Part shown: positions 4,379 through 17,424 of the stretch, piece by piece
Position numbering within the stretch: position 1 is the first letter of the stretch
How the letters are laid out: the number at the start of each line of letters is the position of its first letter
Source of the DNA: an uncultured Actinomycetota bacterium
GTDB lineage: Bacteria; Actinomycetota; Thermoleophilia; RBG-16-64-13
Assembly: GCA_963777945.1 (NCBI GenBank)
Contig: CAVZSN010000009.1
Location: 22,286-86,285 of the forward strand
Direction: 5' to 3'
DNA length: 64,000 nucleotides
Translations under genes and position numbers: made by a program
Notes under the pieces: model-generated
What the model was told of the DNA's origin: nothing
Database searches by the model: none
Seen by the model: the letters and a program-made list of their open reading frames with translations, nothing else

Positions 4379-5209
4379 TCAACTTTTCCACAGTTCCACA
4401 TCGCCCACGTTCTGGTCGGCGACGGTGGCATCGATAGGGCCCAGCTTCTTGGTGAGATACCCGTCTTTCTCTATGGTGAGGACGTAGCTTGCGTCCCCCA
4501 GGCCCTTGAGCCAGAAGTCGCCGTAGTTGTCGGTGACGGCGGAAAGGGTGTCGCCGGTTTCCGGGTTGGTGGCAGTGACGGTGGCCCCTTGCACGCACTC
4601 ATCGGCCTCGGGGTCATAAAGGGCCCCGGCGATCCACTTCTTGGGCAGGTTCAGGTAGTAGACCCGGGGACGGGTGGGAAGCTCGGGCTTAAGGAGCTCC
4701 GCCTGGGCCAGCTTGTCCTTGACCCGGGGGTCGTCTTCGTCGGCGAAGGTGAAGGCTCCGGTGGGGCAGGCATCTGAGCAGCGGGTCTCGGTCCAGCCCT
4801 GATCTAAGAGATGGGCGCAGAAGGTGCACTTCTGGGCGATGTTGAGGTCGTCGTTGAAGTAGATGACGTTCTCGTAGGGACAGGCTTCCAGACACAGCTG
4901 GTTACCCCGGCACCACTCCGGAGAGATGATGACGATGCCGTCCTCTCTTCGGTAGATGGCTCCGGCCGGACAGGCCTCGATACAGGGAGCCTCCCGGCAG
5001 TGCTGACAGATACTGTGGTGATAGGTCACCATGACCTTGGGTACCGTACCCCGTTCCAGGTCGATCACCTTGTTCCAGAACTGACCCGTATCGGGCTGGG
5101 GTTTGGCGATGGGCGTCCAGTCGTTGGCCACGTGCTCGTCCTTGCAGGCGATCTGGCAGTTGTGGCAGCCGTTACAGATGGCGAGATCGATGAGCATGAC
5201 TTTGGCCAT
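4379..5209 (-). CDS. Fe-S beta subunit of a pyrogallol-transhydroxylase-type (BthL-like) molybdoenzyme
   Basis: 276 aa starting at MAKVMLIDLAICNGCHNCQIACKDEH. Cys groups: CNGCHNCQIAC, CQHCREAPCIEACP, CLEACP, CTFCAHLL..CSDACP. KPELPTRPRVYYLNL is followed by a C-terminal beta-sandwich-like tail (GATVTATNPETGD...YVLTIEKDGY), as in the small subunit of the Pelobacter transhydroxylase. ATG 5209 overlaps the corrected alpha stop. Confidence 0.8.
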   Translation of the reverse strand: MAKVMLIDLAICNGCHNCQIACKDEHVANDWTPIAKPQPDTGQFWNKVIDLERGTVPKVMVTYHHSICQHCREAPCIEACPAGAIYRREDGIVIISPEWCRGNQLCLEACPYENVIYFNDDLNIAQKCTFCAHLLDQGWTETRCSDACPTGAFTFADEDDPRVKDKLAQAELLKPELPTRPRVYYLNLPKKWIAGALYDPEADECVQGATVTATNPETGDTLSAVTDNYGDFWLKGLGDASYVLTIEKDGYLTKKLGPIDATVADQNVGDVELWKS

Positions 5210-7853
5210 CAGGCACCCCCTTCCGTGAAGCCCGCTATGCAGGGCCCGGCGGTGATGTGGCACTCGCGGGCGAACGCTTCGGGATACTTGGACCTGCAGA
5301 CCCTCGAGGTCGGTCTTCTCCACTTCCACCAGGAAGCCGGAGACGGCCATGCCCACCGTGTTCTTGGAGGTGCAGTTGCGGGGCACGATGGTGTTGATCA
5401 CCCCGCCTCGGTCGATCTCGCCGGGGACGATGGGGTCGTACTTGGCGCCGTGGTCGATACCCACCGCCCCGGCGATGATGCGCTCGGTGACGTAGGCGCC
5501 GGCCAGGACGGTGCCGCGCTCGTTGTAGATGCTGACCACATCTCCGTGCTTGATGCCGCGGGCGTTGGCGTCCGCCGGGTTCATCCACAGCGGGTGATAC
5601 TGATAGCCGTCGCTGCCCCGGATCTTGCAGGTGTCGATCTCCCGGAACCAGGTGACGTCGTCGTGCTGGGAGTGCACCCCCCAGCGGGGGTGGTTGCTCA
5701 TGACGAGGAGCGGATACTTCTTCGCGCGCTCCGTCCCCAGGGTCTCCTCGTGCGAGACGCCTTGCGGGATCCACTGCGGCACCGGCGGCCGCTCCGGGTC
5801 GTCGGGGAAGTGCTCGGCCAGACCGGTCGAGTAGAACTCCAGCTTGCCGGTCGGCGTGGAGAGGGGGTGCCTCTCCGGATCCTCGTAGAACTCGATGAAG
5901 CCGGCGGGGATGTCCTCCCAGCCAGGTTCGGTCGGCACGACGTAGTAACCCTTCTCGTTCAGTTCTTCCCAGGAGATCTTGTCGGCGACTCCGGAGAACT
6001 CCCAGCCCGACTTGATGATCTCGGGGATGGTCTGCCCTCCGGTGTATTCCTCGAGTAGTCCCAGCCTCTCTGCGATCTTGCACACCACCTCGTAGTCGCT
6101 CACCGATTCACCGAGTGACTCCATGCACCGGGGCTCGGGATAGAGCATGTCCATCTGCCCGCTGAAGATGTCGGAGCCGATGTCGTCCTCTTCCAACTTG
6201 GTGTTCACCGGCAGGAGCACATCGGCGAAGAGAGCGTCGTTCTCGATCCAAGGATGCTGACACAAAACGAACTCGATGGATTCGTCGCGCAGCGCCCGGA
6301 TGAAGTTGTTGCCATCGTTCCAGCAGGTGATCCACGACGGCGAGTCGGTCCAGATCATGTGGATCTTGGAAGCCCCCTCGGCCGGGTACTTGTACTCCAC
6401 GAACTGGTCGGTGGCTTCGCTCCGCATCCCGTGTCTGTTGCCGTACCAGGTGCCCTCACCGTCGAGGATCAACTTGGGCACCAGGGTCTTGGGGATGCAC
6501 GATTCGCGGCCCTCTTCCGGAGGGATGTCCCCCCGGTAGGCGGCATCCAGACTGATTGACACCTCGGGTTTCGGAGCGGCCTGGTTCTCGGGATCACGGC
6601 CCAGGGCCCACTCGATCATCTTGGCCTGATTGCAGCCCGGCTTGCCCAGCCCCTGCATGGCGAGACAGAGCACCTGCAGCCGGGCGGGCTCGGTGGAGTA
6701 GGGGCCACGGATGGCCGGCCCGCCGTTGGAGATGACGATGGTGGTCCTCTTCGACGCCCATTCGTCGGCCAGGGCCTTGATGATGCGCGCCGGCACTCCT
6801 GTGATGGGCGCCGCCCACTCCGGGCTCTTGGGCTGGCCGTCCTCCTCGCCCCTCACGTAGGCCTCGAACTTGTCGACGCCGTAGGCATGGGTCGCGAGGT
6901 ACTCCTTGTCATAGGTGCCTCGGTCGAACCAGCGGTGGGCGATGGCCAGATACAGGGCGGCGTCGGTGTTGGGGAGGACTGGGATCCACTTGTCGGCGTG
7001 CACGGCGTTGCCGTAGTTGCAGTCGGGCGCGATATAGATCTGCTTGATGCCCAGTTCGCTCCACCAGTAGTTGAAGCGGCTGACGAGTTGTCCGCCCCAT
7101 CCCCAGGGCGTGGTCTCGGGGTCACATCCCCAGAAAAGAAGCAGTTCCGCGTTCTTCGAGATGTCGTAGAGCAGGTTCTTCTGCGGCAGTTGCTGACCGA
7201 TGGGCTCGCAACCCCACACGTGCTTGGCTCCCCAATACCAGCCTTCCCAGGAGTCGGCATTACGCACTTGGTGAGTGTAGCCACCGAAGAGGGCTAAGCA
7301 GCTTCCGCCCGCAGCCGTGGGGTCCGTGCACGGTCTTGTTCTCGCCGTGCTGGTCGTTCTGGTAGAGGATGGCCGTCGGACCGTAGGCCTTCTTGACCCG
7401 CAGCATTTCGCTCGTGACGATGTCCAGCGCCTCGTCCCACGAGATCCGCAGGTACTTGCTCGCTCCCCGGTTCTGGATGTTACGGCCGCCCGGGCCGGTG
7501 GAGCCCGGCGCGCCGGTATGGTCGAAGTCCACGCGCTTCATGGGGTAGCGGATCCGAGCCGGGGAGAAGACCCGCTTCTTGTAGCAGAGGGAAAGCGGCG
7601 GAGGCAGGGTCTTTTCGCCGGGATCGAAGGTCTTGCCCCGGGCGTGCATCACCCAGGGTTTGACCTCCTCCTTGGTGTACTTGTCGTAGAAGCGGGCGGG
7701 GCGGATGCGAAGGACCTTGCCGTCCTTGGTGTCCACCATGCAGGCGTTGCCGCCCCAGGAGACGCCAATGAAGCACATATCGCGGACGATGGTCCTCGCC
7801 TCGGACTGCTGTGACCCGGTCGCCCCTGTCTTCGCCTGGTCGGCCACGTTCAT
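5209..7853 (-). pseudogene. bis-MGD molybdopterin oxidoreductase alpha subunit, transhydroxylase (AthL/RhL) family paralogue; two frame disruptions (near 7297 and 5290)
   Basis: The N-terminus is in ORF 7260..7853 (RBS AGAGGAG, MNVADQ...YPMKRVDFDHTGAPGSTGPGGRNIQNRG). The body is in ORF 4379..7267 (NADSWEGWYWGAKHVWG...). A shift after ...VEVEKTDLEGLQ restores the tail SKYPEAFARECHITAGPCIAGFTEGGA-stop, with TGA at 5211-5209. There is no Tat signal and no N-terminal Cys cluster, as in AthL. Confidence 0.75.
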
Positions 7854-7894
7854 CTCCTCTCGTCAAGACCTCGAGCCATCATAGTACGAGGAGG

Positions 7895-7918
7895 GCCTCC
7901 GGTGCATCCACCGGAGGC
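7895..7918. promoter_or_regulatory. perfect 10-bp inverted repeat (GCCTCCGGTG-CATC-CACCGGAGGC) in the divergent intergenic region
   Basis: Read directly from the sequence. It lies about 40 nt upstream of the Mo-enzyme start codon. The A-run follows it on the + strand and a T-run precedes it on the - strand, which is the wrong geometry for a terminator of either neighbour. Confidence 0.3.
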
Positions 7919-7978
7919 GCCAAAAAACTGGATGCGCTCCGGGCAGTGGCCCCTCGGCACCAGCCACCGGGCGCCGCC

Positions 7979-8067
7979 GTGTCCCTAGCGTGTCCCCGGA
8001 GGTTGACATGTAGATGCCCCAGGTATAGGATGCCTGATGCGGGCCCATGTGTCCCCATGGTGTCCCC
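7979..8067 (+). promoter_or_regulatory. candidate promoter (TTGACA 8003-8008, 17-nt spacer, TAGGAT 8026-8031) bracketed by two pairs of GTGTCCC(C) direct repeats
   Basis: The repeats start at 7979, 7990, 8049 and 8060, all on the same strand, with 11-bp spacing inside each pair. Pair 1 abuts the -35. Pair 2 lies in the predicted 5' UTR of the gene starting at 8128. Confidence 0.45.
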
Positions 8068-8127
8068 GAACGCAGAATGGATCAGCCCCCGAGGTCGACT
8101 GTCGGGACGCAGCCGGGAGGTACGCCG

Positions 8128-10956
8128 ATGGCCAAGATCACGAAGCGGCTCGTGGACAGCCTCAAACCCGATCCGACCCGCGAGACATTCGTTGCCGACG
8201 ACGAGCTTCCCGGCTTTGGGATCCGGGTCAGGCCGTCCGGGGCCGCCTCGTACATCCTGAGGTACAGGAACGCCGCAGGACTGTCACGGCGGCTCACCAT
8301 CGGCCGGGTGGGCGTCCTCTCACCGGAAGAGGCCCGGCGAGCGGCGCAGCAGCACCTGGCGGCGGTCAAAGGTGGGGCGGACCCGGCGCAGGCGAAGAGG
8401 CAGGCCACCCAGGCCGCAGACCAAGAGCCCAAGGAGGTCCAGCACGGCATCGACGAGCTTCGCCGGTTCAGGATCTTCGCCGAACTGGAAGACGAAGACT
8501 TCGAAGCCATCGCTCACATCGCCCGGGTCAAGGAATTCGAAGTGGCCGAGAAGCTCACCACCGAGGGGGCGCCGGCCGACCAACTCTATCTGTTCTTGAA
8601 GGGGCAGGCGGCGGTCAAGGTCCGTGATCCCTACGGTCGCCAGGTACTCATCGACGAACTCGGCCCCGGAGAGCTTCTAGGTTGGGGAGCAGTGACGGAG
8701 CCCCACGTCTACACGGCTTCGGCGTGGACCAGCCGACCCTCCCAGGCGATCGTCATCGACGGCAAGCGGCTGCGCGACCTCTGTGAAGAGAACAAGCGGA
8801 TCGGCTACGAAGTGGCCAAGGGCGTGGGGGAAGTCATCTCCAAGCGTTTCGGACTTGCTGTGGCCGGCCGGGGGGGTCAGACCCTCGCCGGACACGGCAT
8901 CGACGAACTTCGCCAGTTCAAGATCTTCGCCGAACTGGACCTGGGCGATCTGGACGCCATCGCGCGCATCGCCTATGTGCGCGAGTTCGCAGCCGGGGAG
9001 GAGCTGACGGTGGAGGGCGCTCCTGCCGACCACCTCTATCTGTTCCTCAAAGGCAAGGCCAGGGTCAAGGTCAAAGGCGCCAACGGTCGTCACGCAGTCA
9101 TCGATGAACTCGGCCCCGGGGAGCTCTTGGGTTGGGGAGCCGTCATGGAGCCCCACGTCTATACGGCCTCCGCGTGGACGACGGAACCCAGCGAGGTGAT
9201 CGTCGTCGACGGGACGGATCTTCGCGAACTCTGCAAGACCAGCAAGCACCTGGGATACCAGGTCTGCAAGGGCATCGGCGAGGTCATGTCCACCCGGTTC
9301 GGGCAGGCCGTGACCGGGCAGGGCACTCCCGCGCTTGCCGATCACGGCACGGACGAACTTCGCCAGTTCAGGCTCTTCGCGGAGCTGGAGGACGAGGACT
9401 TCGAGTCCATCGCGCGGATCGCGCGCATCCAGGAGTCCCAACCCGGCGAAGAACTGACCACAGAGGGAACTGCGGCCGACCATCTCTACCTCTTTCTCCA
9501 AGGCAAGGCGGCGGTCACGGTCAAGGGCGCCGACGGCCGCCAGGTGCTCATCGACGAGATCGGTCCCGGGGAGGTGCTGGGCTGGGGAGCGGTGACCGGA
9601 CCTCCTCATGTGTACACGGCCACAGCCTGCACGATGGAACCGTCTCAGCTGATCGTCTTCGACGGCAAGGACCTTCTCCGGCTCTGCGAGACCAACAACC
9701 GCATCGGCTATCAAGTGGCGAAAGGCATCGGCGACATCGTCTCCAAGCGCTTCGGCCGGGTCGCATCGGGCAGGAAGGGGCAGGTTCTGGCGGGACATGC
9801 CATAGACGAACTCCGCCAGTTCAAGATCTTCGCCGAACTGGATGTGGCCGACCTGGATTCCATCGCCCACCTCGCCTATGTCCGGGAGTTCGACGCGGGC
9901 GAGGAACTGATAACGGAAGGCGACCCTGCGGAGCAACTCTACCTGTTCCTGAACGGCAAGGCGGTGGTCAAAGTCCGGGGTGCAGACGGCCGTCAGGTCC
10001 CCATCGACGAGCTCGGTCCCGGCGAGGTGCTGGGTTGGGGAGCGGTCATGGAACCGCACATCTATACGGCTTCCGCGTGGACCCTCGAACCGTCCGAGCT
10101 CGTGATCGTCAAAGGGAATGATCTGCGCGGCCTGTGCGACGCCAACAAGCATTTGGGTTACATGGTGTGCAAGGGGATCGGCGAGGTCATGTCCACTCGC
10201 TTCGGCCAGGCCGTCCGGGGCCATGGGATCGACGAACTGCACCAATTCAAGATCTTCGGGGAGCTCGACTTCGCCGATCTCGACGCAATCGGGCGTATCG
10301 CCCACATCCGAGAGGTCGGACCCGGTGAGGAGCTCATAGCCGAAGGCAAGTCGGCCGACGAGCTGTATCTCTTCTTGGAGGGGAAGGCCTCCGTGAAGGT
10401 ACGTGACCCCGACGGCCACCAGGTGCTCATCGACGAGATCGGTCCCGGAGAGGTGCTGGGTTGGTCGGCCGCGGTGGAACCCTACGTCTACACCGCCTCG
10501 GCCTGGACGAGCGAGCAGTGCGAGCTGATCGTGGTGAACGGCCAACGTCTGCGCCAGCTCTGCGAGAGCAACAAACGCCTCGGCTACCAGGTCACCCGGG
10601 GTATCGGTGAGATCATCTCCAGACGCTTCGGACGAGCCATGGGCGCCCGGGGAGATTTGCAGGATAAGGATCTGCGGGCCTTCGGCGGCGAGGAGCGGGT
10701 CGTCTGGGATGACGGTCTGCTCCAACTTACCACCGAAGCGATCCTCATCGGTATGGGGAGCGACAGCCCCGAGGTGATCCCTCTTGAGGCCGTCTACGAC
10801 GTCGACGTGGAGAACGGTTGCCTTGTCTTCCACGTGCAAGGCGGCGACGTCTGCTCGCACTGCATCGACGATCCGGATCATCTGGCTGCACTGGTCCGTG
10901 ACGAGATGCTGCGCAGCCGCCACGCTCAGAGACGCAAGGACTACTACGTCCACTAG
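8128..10956 (+). CDS. multidomain protein: integrase Arm-type DNA-binding domain (DUF4102-like), five tandem cNMP-binding-like (CAP effector) domains, and an uncharacterised C-terminal domain
   Basis: ATG 8128 is preceded by GGGAGG (8115-8120). The N-terminus MAKITKRLVDSLKP...ELPGFGIRVRPSGAASYILRYRN..RRLTIGRVGVLSPEEARRAA...GGADP matches the P4-type integrase arm domain. It is followed by five ~150-aa units of pattern ELRxFxIFAEL..EG..AD.LYLFL.G...V......G.....IDE.GPGE.LGW. No recombinase catalytic domain is present. Confidence 0.8.
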   Translation: MAKITKRLVDSLKPDPTRETFVADDELPGFGIRVRPSGAASYILRYRNAAGLSRRLTIGRVGVLSPEEARRAAQQHLAAVKGGADPAQAKRQATQAADQEPKEVQHGIDELRRFRIFAELEDEDFEAIAHIARVKEFEVAEKLTTEGAPADQLYLFLKGQAAVKVRDPYGRQVLIDELGPGELLGWGAVTEPHVYTASAWTSRPSQAIVIDGKRLRDLCEENKRIGYEVAKGVGEVISKRFGLAVAGRGGQTLAGHGIDELRQFKIFAELDLGDLDAIARIAYVREFAAGEELTVEGAPADHLYLFLKGKARVKVKGANGRHAVIDELGPGELLGWGAVMEPHVYTASAWTTEPSEVIVVDGTDLRELCKTSKHLGYQVCKGIGEVMSTRFGQAVTGQGTPALADHGTDELRQFRLFAELEDEDFESIARIARIQESQPGEELTTEGTAADHLYLFLQGKAAVTVKGADGRQVLIDEIGPGEVLGWGAVTGPPHVYTATACTMEPSQLIVFDGKDLLRLCETNNRIGYQVAKGIGDIVSKRFGRVASGRKGQVLAGHAIDELRQFKIFAELDVADLDSIAHLAYVREFDAGEELITEGDPAEQLYLFLNGKAVVKVRGADGRQVPIDELGPGEVLGWGAVMEPHIYTASAWTLEPSELVIVKGNDLRGLCDANKHLGYMVCKGIGEVMSTRFGQAVRGHGIDELHQFKIFGELDFADLDAIGRIAHIREVGPGEELIAEGKSADELYLFLEGKASVKVRDPDGHQVLIDEIGPGEVLGWSAAVEPYVYTASAWTSEQCELIVVNGQRLRQLCESNKRLGYQVTRGIGEIISRRFGRAMGARGDLQDKDLRAFGGEERVVWDDGLLQLTTEAILIGMGSDSPEVIPLEAVYDVDVENGCLVFHVQGGDVCSHCIDDPDHLAALVRDEMLRSRHAQRRKDYYVH
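8443..10635 (+). repeat. in-frame tandem array of five ~450-nt coding units (cNMP-binding-like domains)
   Basis: Units begin at 8443, 8893, 9343, 9796 and 10222 (periods 450, 450, 453 and 426 nt), each with CA(C/T)GG/CxATxGACGAACT. The units are diverged, alternating between two subtypes. Confidence 0.85.
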
Positions 10957-10976
10957 AGGTTGGGGGGCCCCTGGTC

Positions 10977-11807
10977 ATGCATATCATCGTCGACCGTCGT
11001 GAGCTCACAAAGGGGGACATGATTTCCCTGACGGTGGAGGCCCCCGCCATTGCTCGCAAGATCCGCCCCGGGCAGTTCATCATCCTCAGGGTGAACGAGA
11101 CCGGCGAGCGCACGCCCCTCACCGTGGCCTACAAGGATGAGATCCACGGCACGATAACCATCATATTCCAGGTCCTGGGCAAGACCACGGCCATGCTTGC
11201 CTCCCTCAAGGTCGGCGACGCTATCAAGGACCTGGTGGGTCCGCTGGGCTGTGACGAGCGCTTCAACAGGATCGGCACGGTAGTGGGGATCGGGGGGGGC
11301 TCGGGAATAGCCGTTCTCCACCACATCCTGCAAGGGTCCAAAGAGGTGGGGAACTCACTCATAGGCATCATCGGAGCCCGGGAAAAAGCCCTTCTCATAC
11401 TTGAGGACGAGATGGCGGCTCTTTGCGACCGGCTGCTCATCACTACCAACGACGGCAGCGCCGGCATGCACGGCCTGGTCACCGATGCCCTCGCCAAGCT
11501 GGTGGAGGAGCAGGTCCACATCGACCAGGTCATCGCCGTCGGTCCGCTCATCATGATGCGTGCCGTCTGCGAGATGACCAAGCTCTACAAGATCCCCACG
11601 CTGGTAAGCCTCAACCCCATCATGGTCGACGGTACCGGGATGTGTGGCTGCTGCCGGGTGACGGTCGCCGGGGAGTGCAAGTTCGCCTGCGTCGACGGTC
11701 CCCATTTCGACGGCCATCAGGTGGATTTCGACGAGCTCATCCAGCGCAACAGCATGTACTCCCGCGACGAGAGGGCTTCCCTTCTGACCTCGATCAGGGC
11801 CCGCTAG
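10977..11807 (+). CDS. nfnA: NfnA/SudB-type ferredoxin-NADP+ oxidoreductase small subunit (FAD/NAD-binding, 2Fe-2S)
   Basis: 276 aa. RPGQFIILR, GIGGGSGIA and the C-terminal MVDGTGMCGCCRV..CKFACVDGPHFDGH cluster motif. Starts 20 nt after the upstream stop. Confidence 0.75.
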   Translation: MHIIVDRRELTKGDMISLTVEAPAIARKIRPGQFIILRVNETGERTPLTVAYKDEIHGTITIIFQVLGKTTAMLASLKVGDAIKDLVGPLGCDERFNRIGTVVGIGGGSGIAVLHHILQGSKEVGNSLIGIIGAREKALLILEDEMAALCDRLLITTNDGSAGMHGLVTDALAKLVEEQVHIDQVIAVGPLIMMRAVCEMTKLYKIPTLVSLNPIMVDGTGMCGCCRVTVAGECKFACVDGPHFDGHQVDFDELIQRNSMYSRDERASLLTSIRAR

Positions 11808-11816
11808 GAGGTGAGC

Positions 11817-13631
11817 ATGGCGCCGAGGACCGAGACCGAGTCCAAAGGCCTTCCCGCGGGGACCGAGATCGCGGCGTATTGCCCGCACTGTCACCAGGCG
11901 CTGAACGTCTTCGATGCGGCGACCAAACAGGTGTGGGTGCGCCTGATGGTGTCTGCCGACGGGGAGGGGGGAGAGTTGCTCCTGAGCCCCAAGCCCGATG
12001 TGTTCGAGCGACAGGTGAGCGTGGAGCTGAACGAGAGCAGGGTGGTCGACGACGTCTCCTGCCCTCACTGCGGCCGTTCGCTCGTGGAGCAAGGTGTCTG
12101 CGAGGTCTGCGGCGCGCCTGCGGCGCGCCTCGTCATCTATGCACAATCCCGGCTGGTCGAATATTCGATATGCACGAACATGACCTGTCACTGGCACGGG
12201 ATGTCTCGCGCCGACCAGGCCAAGATCAAACCGAAGGTCCCCAGACAGAAGAAGCCCGAGCAGGATGCCCTTCTTCGGATACGTAACTTCAATGAGGTCT
12301 CGTACGGCTTCGACCGGGAACTGGCCGTCCTCGAAGCGAGCCGCTGTCTGGAGTGCAAGAAGCCGGCCTGCGTCGGGGGTTGTCCGGTGGGTATCGACAT
12401 CCCGGGCTTCATCCGCCTGATGAAAGCCGGCGAGTTCGTGGAGGCCGCCAGGCACATCAAGCAGAAGAACGCCCTTCCTGCGGTGTGCGGACGGGTCTGT
12501 CCCCAAGACGATCAGTGTGAGAAGGTGTGCATCGTCGGCAAGAACGGTGACCCGGTGGCCATCGGCAATCTGGAGAGGTTCGCCGCCGACTTCGAGCGCG
12601 AGACCGACTCCGTCTCTCTCCCCCGCAAAGCCACGCCCACCGGCAAGCGCATAGCGGTGGTGGGTAGCGGTCCCGCCGGCCTCACCCTGGCGGCCGATAT
12701 GGTGGCCAAGGGGCACTCGGTCACCGTGTTCGAGTCGCTCCACAAGGCAGGGGGGGTGCTGGTCTACGGGATCCCCGAGTTCCGGCTGCCCAAGGCCATA
12801 GTCGAGTCGGAGATCGACTACCTTCGCCGCCTGGGAGTGAAGATAGAGCTAAACTCCATCGTGGGACGCCTCTACACTCTCGAAGAACTCCTCGAGACCG
12901 GCTACGACGCCATCTTCGTGGGCACCGGCGCGGGGCTGCCCATATTCATGGGACTTCCAGGCGAGAACCTGTGCAACATCCTCTCCGCGAACGAGTACCT
13001 CACCCGGATCAATCTCATGAAGGCCTACGCCTTTCCCGAGTACGACACCCCGGCTCCGAAAGGTCAGCAGGTCGCCGTCCTTGGCGCAGGCAACGTGGCC
13101 ATGGACTGCGCTCGGACTGCGGTACGCATGGGGGCCCGCGAGGTGACCATCGTCTATCGGCGCACCCGAGACGAGATGCCGGCCCGCAGCGAGGAGATCG
13201 AGCACGCCCTGCAGGAAAACGTGAGGTTCCGCTACCTGTCCAGCCCCATCCGTTTCGTCGGAGACGACCGGGGCTGGGTCAGGCAGATGGAGTGCATCCA
13301 GATGCAGCTGGGGGAGCCCGACGCGTCAGGACGGCCGAGGCCGATCCCCAAGGCCGGTTCCAACTTCATCATGGATGTGGATCTGGTCATCGTCGCGGTG
13401 GGGGCAGGTCCTAACCCTGTGCTCTTCTCCGGCTCTCCCGGTCTGGAGCAGACCAAACGGGGCTACATACAGGCGGTGACCCCTTCAGGTCGCACGAGCA
13501 TCCCTCGCGTATGGGCCGGGGGTGACATCGTCACCGGATCGGCTACGGTGATCCTCGCCATGGGCGCCGCCCGTCAGGCGGCCGACGACATGGACGAGTA
13601 TCTGAGAAGCGATTCGGCCGAGTGGCCGTAA
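11817..13631 (+). CDS. nfnB: NfnB/GltD-type NADPH-dependent oxidoreductase large subunit with an extra ~150-aa N-terminal Cys-rich (zinc-ribbon-like) extension
   Basis: AGGAGG at 11806-11811 precedes ATG 11817 (an in-frame GTG at 11811 is also possible). The core has CLECKKPACVGGCPVGIDIPGFI, CGRVCPQDDQCEKVC, VAVVGSGPAGLT and VAVLGAGNVAMD. The extension carries CPHC(24-27), CPHC, CEVC and CTNMTCHWH. Confidence 0.75.
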   Translation: MAPRTETESKGLPAGTEIAAYCPHCHQALNVFDAATKQVWVRLMVSADGEGGELLLSPKPDVFERQVSVELNESRVVDDVSCPHCGRSLVEQGVCEVCGAPAARLVIYAQSRLVEYSICTNMTCHWHGMSRADQAKIKPKVPRQKKPEQDALLRIRNFNEVSYGFDRELAVLEASRCLECKKPACVGGCPVGIDIPGFIRLMKAGEFVEAARHIKQKNALPAVCGRVCPQDDQCEKVCIVGKNGDPVAIGNLERFAADFERETDSVSLPRKATPTGKRIAVVGSGPAGLTLAADMVAKGHSVTVFESLHKAGGVLVYGIPEFRLPKAIVESEIDYLRRLGVKIELNSIVGRLYTLEELLETGYDAIFVGTGAGLPIFMGLPGENLCNILSANEYLTRINLMKAYAFPEYDTPAPKGQQVAVLGAGNVAMDCARTAVRMGAREVTIVYRRTRDEMPARSEEIEHALQENVRFRYLSSPIRFVGDDRGWVRQMECIQMQLGEPDASGRPRPIPKAGSNFIMDVDLVIVAVGAGPNPVLFSGSPGLEQTKRGYIQAVTPSGRTSIPRVWAGGDIVTGSATVILAMGAARQAADDMDEYLRSDSAEWP

Positions 13632-13653: not shown

Positions 13654-14850
13654 GTGGAGTCGATCAGACCCATCTTCAAGATTGGGCACGGGCCGTCGAG
13701 CAGTCATACCATAGGTCCGGCCCGGGCGGCGGCGATCTTCGCCGGCTGGAACGAGTCCGCCTCTCGGTTCAGGGTGACGCTCCACGGGAGTCTGGCGCTC
13801 ACGGGACACGGTCACGGTACCGATCAGGCGATCGCCAAGACACTCTCGGATCGCCAAGTGGACGTGGTCTGGCGCCCCGACGTCGAGCTCCCGCTCCATC
13901 CCAACGGCATGGTCTTCGAGGCTCTCGATACCGCTGGGGTGCCGGTGGATTCCTGGGTGGTCTACAGCGTGGGAGGAGGCGATCTTCGAGACGATTCCGG
14001 TCGATTCTCGGAAGAGATCGTCACGTTCCCCCACGATACCTTCGCGGAGATCCTCGGCTGGTGCGAGAGCACCGGCAGGGAGCTCTGGCAGTATGTCGAC
14101 GATTTCGACCGGCAGCCGGGAGTGCGCGACCATCTGGCCGACGTTTGGGCGGAGATGCAGGCTTCGGTAGAAAGGGGGCTGGTGGCGGAGGGCGTGCTAC
14201 CCGGTCCACTGCGGTTGGCGCGAAAGGCGAAGCACTACCACGCGCACGCGCTCGAAGGACGAGGAAGCGCCGACCGCGGTCTCGCGTTCGCTTTCGCGTT
14301 GGCAGTGGCCGAAGAGAACGCTGCAGGCGGGATCGTGGTGACCGCTCCCACGTGCGGCGCCTCCGGTGTAGTACCGGCGGTGCTCATGGTGGCACAGCAG
14401 ACTCTGGGCAGCTCGGAGGCGGAGGTGATCAAGGCCTTGGCCACCGCCGGCCTGGTGGCCAGCCGGGTGAAAAGCGGCGCCTCCATCTCGGGCGCCGAAG
14501 TGGGTTGCCAGGGGGAGATCGGCACCGCGTGCGCCATGGCAGCGGCGGCTGCGACCTTCCTGATGGGAGGAACGCCCAAGCACGTGGAATATGCTGCAGA
14601 GATGGGGCTGGAGCACTATCTCGGGCTTACCTGTGACCCCATCGGGGGATACGTGCAGATTCCCTGCATCGAGCGGAACGCTCTGGCGGCGGATCATGCC
14701 TGGGCCTGCGCCGTCTACGCCCTGTACTCCGACGGGTCACATGACATCTCCTTCGACCGCATCGTCAGGACCGTGCTGGAGACCGGGCGCGACATCCCGG
14801 CGGCATATCGGGAGACCGGCCTTGGAGGGCTGGCTGGCGGCTACGCTTGA
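13654..14850 (+). CDS. sdaA: L-serine ammonia-lyase (Fe-S dependent L-serine dehydratase)
   Basis: GTG start. N-terminal IFKIGHGPSSSHTIGP, then PTCGASGVVPAV and the GCQGEIGTACAMAA motifs. Confidence 0.8.
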   Translation: MESIRPIFKIGHGPSSSHTIGPARAAAIFAGWNESASRFRVTLHGSLALTGHGHGTDQAIAKTLSDRQVDVVWRPDVELPLHPNGMVFEALDTAGVPVDSWVVYSVGGGDLRDDSGRFSEEIVTFPHDTFAEILGWCESTGRELWQYVDDFDRQPGVRDHLADVWAEMQASVERGLVAEGVLPGPLRLARKAKHYHAHALEGRGSADRGLAFAFALAVAEENAAGGIVVTAPTCGASGVVPAVLMVAQQTLGSSEAEVIKALATAGLVASRVKSGASISGAEVGCQGEIGTACAMAAAAATFLMGGTPKHVEYAAEMGLEHYLGLTCDPIGGYVQIPCIERNALAADHAWACAVYALYSDGSHDISFDRIVRTVLETGRDIPAAYRETGLGGLAGGYA

Positions 14851-14859
14851 AACCAGTTC

Positions 14860-16665
14860 CTAGGGCGTATGGCCGTCCTCTGCGGCCGGCAGCCTCACGG
14901 TGAAGGTGGACCCCGACCCCAAGATGCTCGAGACCTCGACCTTGCCGCCATGCCGCTCGGCGACGTGACGCACGATACTGAGGCCGAGGCCGGTGCCGCC
15001 GGTCTCCCGCGATCGCGCCTTGTCGACGCGATAGAAGCGTTCGAAGATGCGGCGCTGCTCGGCGATCGGGATGCCCACACCATCGTCTTCCACGGTGAGC
15101 ACGACCCAGCGGCGCTCGGCGAGCCCCTCCTCGTGCTGTACGCTCACCGTGATGTGCCCGCTGGGCTCGGTGTAACGGATGGCGTTATCGAGCAGGTTCC
15201 GGATGAGGGTCCGAAGGGCGATCTCGTCCCCGAGGACCACTCCGCCGAGCTTCACCTCGACAGTCAGGCCCTGGTTCTTCGCCTGCGCCAGAGGCAGCAG
15301 TTCGGCCGCGGTCTCCTCGGCCAGCCGACCGAAGTCGACGGGGACGAACTCACTCTGTATCTGCGCGCCCGGTTCCTCGAGCCGCGATAGCGTGAGGAGG
15401 TCGTTGGCCAAGTCCAGCAGACGCTCGATCTCGGCCGAGAGCCGGTCGACGAACACCGCCGCTTGCTCCGGATCCTCTCGGATGGCGTGTTTGAGCGTCC
15501 CCGCTAGCAGAGAGAGCCCGGCCAAGGGTGTCTTCAGCTCGTGGGAGACGTTGGTGGCGAAGTCCCGCCGGATGCGATCGGTGATAAGCCGCGCGGTCTC
15601 GTCACGGATCACGAACAGGGTCTGTCCTTGTTCGCCGCCTGCCGCGTGGAGGGGGACTACCTCGACTGCCGCGTACTGCTGCCCCGGTAACTCGACGATC
15701 TCATGCACGGGTCCATCGGCCTGGCGCGATCTCTCGGCCAGCGACCAGGCCGGGAAGGCTCGGGCCGCGACGACCAAGGGAGCGCCTTCGGTCCCTTCCA
15801 GCCGGCTTTGGAGGATGCGTTCCGCGGCCGGGTTGGCCCGTACCAAGCGGCCTTGCTCATCGACCACCACGACTCCCTCGGACATCGCCGTGAGCACCTG
15901 ACCCGAGCGCTCCGTCTCGGTACCGAGCCTGGTGACCTGGGTCTCGAGTTGAGAGGCCATGCTGTTGAGCGATTCCGCGAGTTCACCGAGTTCATCTCTC
16001 CGGCGGACGCTGGTCCGATAGGCCAGGTCACCCGAAGCGACGCGTCTGGTCATCTCTTGCAGCCGCTCGATGGGTCTTGTGATCGACCGGGTGAACAGAT
16101 AGGAGACGGCCAGGGTGGGTAGCAGCAGCACGGCCCATACGATGAGCGGTATCCGCCAGGAGGCGGCCACCATGGCATCGACCCGGCTGGCGGGTAGCGC
16201 AGCGCGCACCACGCCGTCCGACCAGCCGGCGTCGCCGGCGGGCAGCGGCATGGCGACATAGACTTCCTCCTGCTTCAGCGTGGCCGACTCGCGGCGCGCC
16301 CGGCCCTCGTGGCCGGCGAGGGCCTGAGCCACCTCGGGGCGGTCGGCGTGGTTGTCGAGCGTGGCCGGATCGACCTCCGAGTCGGCCAGGACCGTGCCGT
16401 CCTCGGCGATGATGGTGAGGCGGAGCCCTCCCGCGTCGCCCGCCGCGTCGGTGAGCGTCTGCAGGTAGGCCGGGTCATCGCCGGCCGAGGTGGAGGCCTC
16501 TTGTTCCAGGACGGCCGCGTACTGATGGGCCTGCCGGGACATGTCGTCCTCCAGCCGGTCAAGATAGACACCACGCAGCACCAGGGCCGCCACCAGCGCG
16601 ACGATGCCGGCGAAGACCAAGGTGATGAGCGCGAAAGCCAGTGGCAGCCGGTAGCGCAGGCGCAT
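14860..16665 (-). CDS. phoR: sensor histidine kinase, PhoR/SenX3-like (2 TM, HAMP, PAS, HisKA, HATPase)
   Basis: 601 aa, intact. TM helices at the N-terminus and around residue 180, H-box SHELKTPL, and G-boxes DDGVGI / GGTGLGLSIV. Sits next to an OmpR-type regulator and pstSCAB-phoU. Confidence 0.8.
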   Translation of the reverse strand: MRLRYRLPLAFALITLVFAGIVALVAALVLRGVYLDRLEDDMSRQAHQYAAVLEQEASTSAGDDPAYLQTLTDAAGDAGGLRLTIIAEDGTVLADSEVDPATLDNHADRPEVAQALAGHEGRARRESATLKQEEVYVAMPLPAGDAGWSDGVVRAALPASRVDAMVAASWRIPLIVWAVLLLPTLAVSYLFTRSITRPIERLQEMTRRVASGDLAYRTSVRRRDELGELAESLNSMASQLETQVTRLGTETERSGQVLTAMSEGVVVVDEQGRLVRANPAAERILQSRLEGTEGAPLVVAARAFPAWSLAERSRQADGPVHEIVELPGQQYAAVEVVPLHAAGGEQGQTLFVIRDETARLITDRIRRDFATNVSHELKTPLAGLSLLAGTLKHAIREDPEQAAVFVDRLSAEIERLLDLANDLLTLSRLEEPGAQIQSEFVPVDFGRLAEETAAELLPLAQAKNQGLTVEVKLGGVVLGDEIALRTLIRNLLDNAIRYTEPSGHITVSVQHEEGLAERRWVVLTVEDDGVGIPIAEQRRIFERFYRVDKARSRETGGTGLGLSIVRHVAERHGGKVEVSSILGSGSTFTVRLPAAEDGHTP

Positions 16666-16694
16666 CGCTCAGGTCTCCAGGGGCGATCGAGTTC

Positions 16695-17424
16695 TCACGA
16701 CGGGGTCAGACGGTAGCCGACGCCACGTACGGTCTGCAGCTCCACCCTCGCCTTTATGCCTTCCAGCTTGGCCCGCAGGCGGCGCACATGCACGTCCAGC
16801 GTCCGCGAGGCCGGGATATAGCGCTGGTGCCAGACGCGCTCCACGATCTCCTCTCGCGGGAAGAGGTGGCCCGGCCGGGAGAGCAGCAGCTCGAGCAGAT
16901 CGTGCTCCTTGGGGTTGAGCGCCACCTCCCCGCTGGGTGTGCGGACGACGTGGGCATCGCGGTCGAGTATCAGATCCCCGGTGCCGAGACTTCCGCCGTC
17001 GGGCGCGGCCGAGGGAACGGCAAAGCCGCTGGGCGCGCGCCGCAGGCGCGCCGCGATGCGGGCCAGCAGAACGTCGAGGTCGAACGGCTTGGTGATGTAG
17101 TCGTCGGCGCCCGGCCGAAGCCCTCCAGCATCGTCTCGCGCTCGCTGCGGGCGGTGAGCATGATGATGGGCAGAGTGGGCTTTCGCCGGACGATCTCCGG
17201 CTGGCCGCCATGCCGTCCAGTCCGGGCAGCATGAGGTCCATGAGCACCAGGTCGACGTTGCCGGCGAGGGCCGTCTCCAGCCCGGCGCGCCCGTTGTGCT
17301 CCTGCAGCACCTCGTAGCCGGCGCGCCGGAGGTTGTAGGCGAGAAGGTCGGAGATGGTCGGGTCGTCCTCCACCAGCAGGATGCATTTCTTGTCTGGTCT
17401 CAGCGCCCACCGGCCGCCTCGCAT
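16695..17424 (-). pseudogene. phoP: OmpR/PhoB-family response regulator (PhoP/RegX3-like), two frame disruptions (near 17210 and 17108)
   Basis: Receiver N-terminus KKCILLVEDDPTISDLL...DLVLMDLMLPGLDG is in ORF 16669..17424. PTLPIIMLTARSERETMLEGF is in ORF 16970..17458. GADDYITKPFDLDVLLARI plus the winged helix (LNPKEHDLLELLL...TVRGVGYRL) is in the frame of ORF 16695..16925. Confidence 0.75.

Follow-up and report, generated by a model that had tools for sequence, protein, structure and literature searches.

This analysis concerns a 64,000-nucleotide stretch of contig CAVZSN010000009.1 (positions 22,286 to 86,285 of the forward strand; assembly GCA_963777945.1) from an uncultured soil bacterium of the Actinomycetota, called the window here. 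At 8128-10956 (+) the window carries an open reading frame (ORF) for a protein of 942 amino acids (aa), in which an arm-type DNA-binding domain of the P4/SXT integrase type is fused to five repeats of the cyclic-nucleotide-binding (CNB) fold. The gene is followed by genes for an NfnAB-type enzyme. The protein has no core-binding or catalytic recombinase domain; judging from the surrounding DNA, its arm domain very probably serves to bind DNA at the promoter of its own gene. We consider it fairly probable that the self-repression cassette of an integrase gene (binding sites together with the arm domain) was captured and now autoregulates the operon formed by the CNB gene and nfnAB.

Architecture of the fusion protein

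The ORF is translated without interruption. A good ribosome-binding site, as the preliminary description of this DNA had stated, lies 7 nt ahead of the ATG at 8128 and is also present in two orthologous loci (L003 and L088). All orthologues and related integrases in our alignment begin with M-[AP]-[KR]-[IL]-[TS]-K-R, which favours this ATG over the one upstream at 8047. In the source annotation the protein is at most a 'CRP-like cAMP-binding protein'. Its layout is as follows:

8115..8120 (+), ribosome-binding site GGGAGG, 7 nt before the ATG
8128..8385 (+), arm-type DNA-binding domain (DUF4102 / Arm-DNA-bind_3) of the type found in IntSXT/P4-type integrases, aa 1-86
8386..8445 (+), variable linker, aa 87-106
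8446..10632 (+), five tandem repeats of the cNMP-binding fold (Pfam PF00027 and repeat analysis)
10633..10953 (+), C-terminal tail, aa 836-942, PH-like in its AlphaFold2 (AF2) model

The Pfam model Arm-DNA-bind_3 (PF13356) matches aa 5-93 over model positions 2-83 of 83, with 56.5 bits (E 3e-15) against a cut-off of 27 bits. Scanned alone, aa 1-105 score 61.9 bits, compared with 58.8-68.9 bits for four genuine integrases scanned together with them. The AF2 model of this segment (predicted local distance difference test, pLDDT, 79) has four strands plus helices. Its top three Foldseek matches in the PDB are 3JU0, 3JTZ and 3RMP (E 8e-4 to 1.4e-3; template modelling (TM) score by target 0.66-0.75), all of them arm-type binding domains from P4-like integrases (HAI7 and HPI); the next match has an E of 0.5. 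DUF4102 has been described as the characteristic arm-binding domain for the IntSXT subgroup, to which integrative and conjugative elements, genomic islands, P4 and Sf6 belong (PMC8138268). By sequence family and predicted fold, the N-terminus is a genuine P4/SXT-type arm-binding domain, as had been proposed.

The rest of a recombinase is missing, which the preliminary description had also noticed. Neither Phage_integrase (PF00589) nor the SAM-like families (PF14659, PF22022) match anywhere in the 942-aa protein, and no helix-turn-helix (HTH) model does so at E up to 1. A tblastn search with four full integrases found no core-binding or catalytic remnant in the window or in the orthologous loci. 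The queries align there only through their first 70-121 residues (mostly 90-100), that is, through the arm region. There is no tRNA gene in the window. Read at the level of domain families, the protein is not a tyrosine recombinase: the core-binding and catalytic domains are absent.

In codon-based comparisons the ratio of non-synonymous to synonymous substitution rates (dN/dS) is 0.05-0.13 for the arm domain, 0.07-0.17 for the CNB region and 0.27-1.05 for the linker. The low ratio of the arm domain indicates that it is a functional, selected part of the protein. The domain is also rich in invariant residues across the orthologue alignment.

The linker differs in length and sequence among orthologues (pLDDT below 50 at aa 99-105) and stops exactly where relatives without the arm domain begin, at M-L-S-G-I-D-E-L. 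The five CNB-like domains start at a repeat-unit boundary, in agreement with the first reading of the sequence. The final linker codons, AAG GAG GTC CAG CAC (K-E-V-Q-H), resemble the Shine-Dalgarno and start region of the genes without the arm domain (AAAGGAGTCGAG GTG). This is only suggestive, as is the read-through into an old translation-initiation region that their likeness to the leader of one such gene (L002) would fit.

We also looked for other proteins that carry PF13356 without an integrase. A single-sequence search gave six proteins of 75-147 aa, and a profile search gave 120 proteins of 94-164 aa among the matches listed; in both, the choice of candidates seems biased to short proteins. 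The four inspected (P0033 and P0035-P0037) look like integrase fragments.

Orthologues and relatives without the arm domain

A search of 5.8 billion proteins returned one identical protein and eight full-length orthologues at 68-77% identity (P0002 and P0004-P0010). Locus L003 contains a near-identical orthologue (95% identity in the CNB protein) and is conspecific with the window. Two-repeat forms with the arm domain also exist: P0032, from the protein search, and P0039 (arm domain, two CNB repeats and tail), from a search with the tail profile. Each of the proteins from the 5.8-billion search, P0032 included, has both PF13356 and PF00027. The same in-frame junction between arm and CNB parts occurs in about 11 orthologues from separate ENA, NCBI and JGI assemblies, which disposes of the chimeric join that the preliminary description had allowed for. 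In one further locus, L007, the CNB gene (5974-8874) and nfnB (9565-11587) are broken by many frameshifts, pointing to a high indel error rate in that long-read metagenome-assembled genome (MAG). Despite these, its arm domain, linker and first CNB repeat form one continuous ORF.

Close relatives without the arm domain (60-72% identity) are more numerous. These 'Arm-less' proteins have about 840 aa (five repeats and tail) or about 532 aa (three repeats and tail). An arm domain hidden upstream of the Arm-less homologues was considered and ruled out: in-frame stops stand ahead of the P0012 gene in L002, so its absence there is real. In a tree of the shared C-terminal 250 residues, which does not include L007, the window-type proteins with an arm domain ('Arm+') are monophyletic. 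Seen across this family of sequences, the arm domain is a later addition to the core protein in one clade of uncultured Actinomycetota. Since the Arm-less relatives have the same CNB repeats, tail and operon, the core protein is not intrinsically a transcription factor.

Across P0028-P0032 and P0039-P0043 there are 1, 2, 3 or 5 CNB repeats with their boundaries kept, a pattern that suggests gain and loss of repeats by unequal recombination. P0041, which has a single repeat, is not adjacent to nfnAB.

Candidate arm-type sites at the promoter

The 7979-8067 fragment, which the preliminary description had named for a binding test of the arm domain, holds two pairs of candidate arm-type sites flanking a promoter-like site:

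7979..7997 (+), upstream pair of candidate arm-type sites GTGTCCCTagcGTGTCCCC, 8-bp direct repeats with an 11-bp period
8003..8031 (+), sigma-70-type promoter-like site, TTGACA-17 nt-TAGGAT, 10/12 consensus matches
8049..8067 (+), downstream pair of candidate arm-type sites (putative operator) GTGTCCCCatgGTGTCCCC, 8-bp direct repeats with an 11-bp period

The promoter scan found 1 site against 0.0 expected in shuffles. The upstream pair ends 5 nt ahead of the -35 hexamer; the downstream pair, 70 bp from the upstream one, begins 17 nt past the -10 hexamer, at roughly +10 to +30. When four loci are aligned (window, L003, L088 and L001), only the -35, the -10 and the downstream pair are invariant. 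Both pairs are kept in L003 though its intergenic flanks have diverged, and the upstream pair is missing in L001 and L088. The repeats of the other Arm+ loci are:

L001 (Arm+ orthologue), after the predicted -10 and before the start codon: GTGTCCCTattGTGTCCCC
L088 (Arm+ orthologue), after the predicted -10 and before the start codon: GTGTCCCTattGCGTCCCC, with one mismatch
L007 (Arm+, with a more divergent arm domain), an 11-bp-phased pair of another motif at the equivalent place: TGCTTACCCGgTGCTTACCCG

An exact repeat of at least 7 nt, offset by 11 bp, stands between the predicted -10 and the start codon in four of the five Arm+ loci with DNA and in none of four Arm-less loci (L002, L005, L006 and L008), which have no phased repeat pair upstream of the start codon. 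Exact 7-mers repeated at this offset have a background frequency of 1.4e-4 per bp, or 0.02 per 150 bp. A scan of the window that permitted two mismatches found the paired motif at no other place; among 88 fetched loci it is found only at the orthologous promoters of L001 and L003.

A GTGTC repeat with 12-bp spacing in the Arm-less L002 leader was judged to be chance, not being common to the other Arm-less loci. Rfam gave no match to a structured RNA or riboswitch at E up to 1 in 7000-12000. The Arm-less leaders carry another conserved element, GAAGCCTTGA(A)GGCC(T/C)G (near-palindrome AGCCTT g AAGGCT), at L002:7955-7975 with equivalents in L005/L008 and L006, about 25-45 nt before the start; it is absent in the Arm+ loci. 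It could be an RNA hairpin or some other regulator's operator, displaced by the arm cassette.

Related integrases and the probable origin of domain and sites

A metagenome scan returned 78 loci that are similar to the window protein only over aa 1 to about 100, at 42-62% identity. These arm-like stretches are the N-termini of ORFs of 400-450 aa, and the four that were scanned are all complete integrases (Arm, SAM-like and Phage_integrase domains). Where enough upstream DNA was present, 69 of 73 integrase loci have a direct-repeat pair of at least 7 nt (periods of 10-12 bp) within 200 nt upstream of int, against a background expectation of 0.07. The period is nearly always 11 bp, and the repeats mostly lie 20-65 nt before the start codon, often abutting it. 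Some of these loci (set L010-L087) have 3-4 repeat copies, for example L011:4980-5000, L013:4965-5000 and L036:4980-5000. The commonest integrase motif, TGCTTACCC(G), is the motif at the L007 fusion gene.

There are at least seven motif classes, each with a distinct signature in the beta-strands of the arm domain:

RVK.SG.[KR]SF..QYRN, motif TGCTTACC
RVF.SGKRSY..QYR, motif TGCTTACG / TGCTTCCG
RCR.SG...YFLKYR, motif GGTGGTTGCC
R.KPNG.RSFLIQYRQ, motif GTCAGATGGCC
RALPSGVKSCFLQYR, motif GTGTTTGCACG
R[VL]R.SG.ASY..RYR (window clade), motif GTGTCCC
RIKPSGIRSY.IQYR (L007), motif TGCTTACCCG, as in integrases

Such covariation of motif and signature is expected if the repeats are cognate arm-type sites. 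A precedent exists for their position. In the case of KplE1 IntS, it has been shown experimentally that integrase genes whose promoter overlaps the attL arm-type sites are negatively autoregulated, and this arrangement was predicted to be widespread among integrase genes (PMC2951348). We infer that the 5' end of an integrase gene, comprising arm-type sites and the arm coding region, was joined to the front of a CNB gene.

This may have happened more than once. In a neighbour-joining tree the L007 arm domain groups with the TGCTTACC integrases and not with the window clade; its identity is up to 61% to integrases and 57% to the window domain, and the L007 CNB segments are closest to Arm-less proteins. 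This weakly suggests an independent second capture, the sequences being short, the trees distance-based and the one locus laden with frameshifts. We hold as tentative the wider idea that integrase genes supply a portable cassette of sites plus arm domain, through which a host gene that captures it becomes self-regulated, that it was captured twice in this family (in the window clade and in L007), and that the window domain and its sites then co-evolved a new specificity. In such a scheme the window clade would represent GTGTCCC sites with a diverged arm domain, and L007 the ancestral TGCTTACCCG sites.

The CNB repeats and the PH-like tail

The cNMP_binding model (PF00027) matches five times (E 3e-92, Pfam). 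The repeats occupy aa 107-256, 257-406, 407-557, 558-699 and 700-835, their mutual identity is 59-76%, and Tandem Repeats Finder (TRF) gives a period of 450 nt. Their phosphate-binding cassette is non-canonical (LGWGAV.EPHVYTASA). Aligned with the CRP of M. tuberculosis, FGELS...PRTSSA corresponds to LGWGA...VYTASA, so that all five repeats have Trp in place of Glu and Tyr in place of Arg. In the CNB family the cassette Glu contacts the ribose 2'-OH and the Arg contacts the cyclic phosphate. Canonical cAMP/cGMP sensing was rejected on the loss of these two residues, and the protein is probably, to judge from its cassettes, not a cyclic-nucleotide receptor in the canonical way. Of the 'CAP-like sensor' first proposed, the fold is present and the cNMP-contacting residues are not.

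The closest solved relative of the repeats is 3MDP from Geobacter metallireducens (E 6e-14), followed by mycobacterial and E. coli CRP. The NCBIfam matches (FtrB, CRP and related) span only the CNB portions and are the sum of five domains. As the CNB fold is found and the HTH_Crp_2/Crp C-terminal HTH is not, the protein, classified by its domains, is not a CRP/FNR-type factor. A defence effector of Pycsar/CBASS type was also rejected: PADLOC matches only the CNB part of PycTIR models, and there is no TIR domain and no cyclase neighbour.

The tail, which had been left without an assignment, belongs to no Pfam or PHROG family. Its AF2 model (pLDDT 73) has seven strands and a C-terminal helix, and the leading PDB matches in Foldseek are all of PH, PTB, FERM-F3 or GLUE type, though weak (best E 7e-3, TM about 0.5). 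A tail profile had only 16 matches among 1.84 billion representative proteins. One is a eukaryotic Vps36-GLUE protein (E 7e-8). The others include proteins with 1, 2, 3 or 5 CNB repeats plus tail, a few stand-alone tails and a zinc ribbon plus tail (P0044). We read the tail, on its predicted fold, as a PH-like domain that is the signature of this small family.

P0044 is a distant family member of 133 aa in which a zinc ribbon is fused to the same PH-like tail. Together with the zinc-ribbon extension of NfnB described below, this fusion hints that the tail and a zinc ribbon interact.

The nfnAB operon and its neighbourhood

Two genes follow on the same strand:

10977..11807 (+), nfnA-like gene, 276 aa, NF004862 at 376 bits (cut-off 220)
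11811..13631 (+), nfnB/gltD-like gene, 606 aa, TIGR01316 at 569 bits (cut-off 472)

By family these are an NfnAB-type pair (NADH-dependent ferredoxin:NADP oxidoreductase), with a PyrK/sulfide-dehydrogenase-like small and a GltD-like large subunit encoded by adjacent genes. The order CNB-tail gene, nfnA, nfnB was found in 11 of 11 genomic contexts examined, Arm+ and Arm-less, with an nfnA-like product of 276 aa and an nfnB/gltD-like product of 604-616 aa. Identity to the window copy is 87-93% for the NfnA-like protein, 81-90% for the NfnB-like protein where intact, and 68-72% for the CNB protein (95% in L003). In the window, 20 nt separate the CNB gene from nfnA, and neither a promoter-like nor a terminator-like site lies between them; in the Arm-less L002 the CNB-tail gene overlaps nfnA. 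Genomically, the core protein is a partner of the NfnAB-type enzyme.

It had been proposed that the gene is linked to an nfnAB-sdaA operon starting 20 nt downstream. The part concerning nfnA and nfnB holds in every locus examined, among them all the five-repeat ones. The part concerning sdaA does not: this gene is absent or replaced in most loci and was rejected as a member of the conserved unit. The sdaA-like gene (13654-14850) is short (398 aa), and its residues 68-394 align to positions 108-447 of 450 in TIGR00720 (L-serine ammonia-lyase), so that part of the beta domain seems to be missing. There are two overlapping match pieces of sdaA in L003 and only a 116-aa fragment in L001. The gene looks eroded or error-laden in the window lineage.

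The nfnB-like gene encodes a conserved, Cys-rich N-terminal extension of about 135-155 aa (11811-12275 in the window; CPHC...CPHC...CEVC...C..C.WH). Zn_ribbon_6 and DZR match it at aa 80-106, as a double zinc ribbon. The extension is atypical: ordinary NfnB proteins are without it.

Downstream of nfnAB, and convergent with it, several Arm+ genomes carry genes for a HAMP-PAS histidine kinase and an OmpR-type response regulator, then for a phosphate-ABC-like binding protein (window 14860-17424 (-); L001:14791-17360; L088:8118-10687). No link to the fusion is established.

Upstream lies a divergent gene (7853..4379 (-)) for a molybdopterin oxidoreductase of the DMSO-reductase family, fused to 4Fe-4S dicluster and CarboxypepD_reg domains. 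It is not a conserved neighbour. One extra base near 7262-7266 (GCTGCTTAGCCC, compared with GCTGCTCGA-CC in L088, L001 and L003) divides the window copy into two frames, and the gene is intact in L088; the split comes either from an indel error in long reads or from recent pseudogene formation. The intergenic region between the divergent genes also holds a perfect inverted repeat of 10 nt around a 4-nt loop (GCCTCCGGTG catc CACCGGAGGC, 7895-7918), immediately upstream of the oxidoreductase gene's conserved start, ATGATGGCTCGAGG (-).

Proposed mechanism and its alternatives

In the autoregulation that we favour, an oligomer would place two of its arm domains on the pair of 8-bp direct repeats at about +10 to +30, which are spaced by one helical turn; in the window genome the second pair, beside the -35 hexamer, would be bound too. 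Binding would repress the gene itself and the co-transcribed nfnA and nfnB. The CNB-like repeats may bind a ligand, other than a cyclic nucleotide bound in the canonical way, and the PH-like tail may contact a partner, possibly the NfnAB enzyme. A ligand event, a partner event or both would shift the geometry of the oligomer and hence operator occupancy, so that expression of the operon would be tied to the state sensed by the core protein.

A number of points weigh against this model. What is said of DNA binding, of where transcription starts, of the sign of regulation and of the ligand is deduced from sequence, and the promoter is a consensus match only. The Arm-less relatives occupy the same operon without a DNA-binding domain, so that regulation would be dispensable for core function. 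When isolated, the arm domains of integrases usually show weak binding that depends on multimerisation. Only the window and L003 have the upstream site pair, which, lying beside the -35, could point to activation or looping and not to repression. DNA is to hand for five Arm+ loci only, of which the window and L003 are one species-level lineage. Finally, the covariation table counts sequences and not independent events, many of the integrase loci being close relatives. The idea of a ligand-sensing factor with a recombinase DNA-binding output, with which the preliminary description had explained the protein, stands in part: the arm domain is very probably DNA-binding at its own promoter, but relatives without it sit in the same operon.

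The first alternative retains self-binding regulation of the CNB-nfnAB operon and supposes that the arm domain activates, or loops the promoter between the two site pairs. The activator-like (class-I/II) position of the 7979-7997 pair, which ends 5 nt before TTGACA in the window and L003, would suit it. We regard it as unlikely, however: the only pair kept in all five Arm+ loci sits downstream of the -10, a place typical of repression, as is that of the related integrase pairs, which abut the start codon, and the documented precedent is negative autoregulation (PMC2951348).

Another explanation is that the protein is a post-translational regulatory or scaffold partner of NfnAB, the arm domain being a DNA tether or baggage without effect on transcription. 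Several features of the core protein are consistent with such a partner: the Arm-less relatives hold the same operon position, the overlap of the CNB-tail gene with nfnA in L002 suggests translational coupling, the tail has, in its model, a typical protein-interaction fold, and the zinc ribbon plus tail of P0044 may be set beside the conserved zinc-ribbon extension of NfnB. A partner role of the core would nevertheless be compatible with autoregulation through the arm domain. As baggage, moreover, the arm domain would not be expected to be under purifying selection as strong as that on the rest of the protein, nor would the phased promoter sites have been kept while the surrounding DNA diverged, with sites and domain residues covarying. 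Overall we give this explanation little credence.

It is very improbable that the protein still takes part in site-specific recombination by binding arm sites, as accessory or decoy, for an integrase whose gene lies elsewhere, for example in ligand-controlled excision of a resident element. The domain and sites are of intasome type (PMC8138268, PMC2951348), and the search of this genome was confined to the 64-kb window. Against such a role, neither the window nor the orthologous loci contain a core or catalytic integrase remnant, the window has no tRNA gene, and the paired motif is found only at the gene's own promoter. The nfnAB synteny, in several loci extending to the same flanking genes, also marks a stable chromosomal locus.

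That the fusion is an artefact of chimeric assembly, or of a frameshift joining two genes, is effectively refuted: the source MAGs do have indel errors (the L007 frameshifts and the 1-nt insertion in the window oxidoreductase), but about 11 proteins, obtained from various samples with various assemblers, share the in-frame junction and have a linker that varies, and codon-level purifying selection acts on both of its flanks.

Significance

A literature search found no description of DUF4102 with CNB, of NfnAB with CNB or of bacterial tandem CNB proteins. We rate the architecture as undescribed in the searchable literature, as first supposed, and the protein as a regulator in the one-component style whose output domain is new and seems to have come along with its cis sites. 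Should the arm domain indeed bind the phased repeats, a recombinase DNA-binding module would have been exapted in a bacterium as the output of a transcription factor, in a traceable way, with donor, junction and sites all recognisable. Because the trans-acting domain and the cis sites would travel together, a new circuit could be wired in one step. The DUF4102 arm domain would then join the short list of output domains of one-component regulators.

The CNB-repeat/PH-like family is an obligate genomic partner of an atypical NfnAB-type enzyme, which suggests small-molecule control of the enzyme. The motif classes, set against the arm residues, provide data for a recognition code of P4/SXT-type arm domains and for the prediction of autoregulated integrases. 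An arm domain in a protein is also not automatically a marker of a mobile element. The case is of interest for regulatory evolution and for mobile-element domestication; its occurrence is restricted to uncultured Actinomycetota.

Comparison with known systems

The closest likeness is to the IntSXT/P4 integrases, whose arm domain is of the same family and predicted fold, at the same N-terminal place, with an M-x-K-[IL]-T-K-R start and with tandem repeats by the gene start (PMC8138268). Unlike these, the protein has no core-binding or catalytic domain, is fused to CNB repeats and is encoded in a stable metabolic operon and not in a mobile element. KplE1 IntS (PMC2951348) likewise has its own product with an arm-binding domain and arm-type repeats overlapping or following the promoter, and self-repression is expected from this arrangement. 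Here, however, the unit is the CNB/nfnAB operon, with no att core, recombination directionality factor (RDF) or recombination, and regulation is deduced where in KplE1 it was measured.

The CRP/FNR regulators also combine a CNB-fold effector and a DNA-binding domain in one polypeptide. They differ in having a C-terminal HTH in place of an N-terminal integrase-arm domain, and one CNB domain in place of five. In the present protein, moreover, the cNMP-contacting Glu and Arg are replaced, and the predicted sites are direct repeats and not palindromes. Among single CNB domains, 3MDP shares the non-canonical P-[HY]-x-Y-T-[AS]-S-A cassette with the repeats, but it is a single domain of 142 aa from structural genomics, without arm domain or tail.

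PutA is a metabolic protein that gained an N-terminal DNA-binding domain, of ribbon-helix-helix fold, and represses its own operon. As in the present family, some lineages have the domain and others lack it, with the same core and operon. This is an analogy only: the DNA-binding fold is another one here, and the core is not a known enzyme.

Balaji et al. in 2005 reportedly described an 'AP2-integrase DNA-binding domain' superfamily that takes in the AP2/ERF and ApiAP2 transcription factors. There, too, a beta-sheet domain of integrase/endonuclease type was recruited as the DNA-binding module of transcription factors. Those proteins, eukaryotic and of ancient origin, have the domain in its shorter AP2 version, whereas the protein described here is bacterial and uses the DUF4102 version. 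In this case, the event is recent enough that it can be traced to integrases that are about 60% identical, and the cis sites seem to have come along with the domain.

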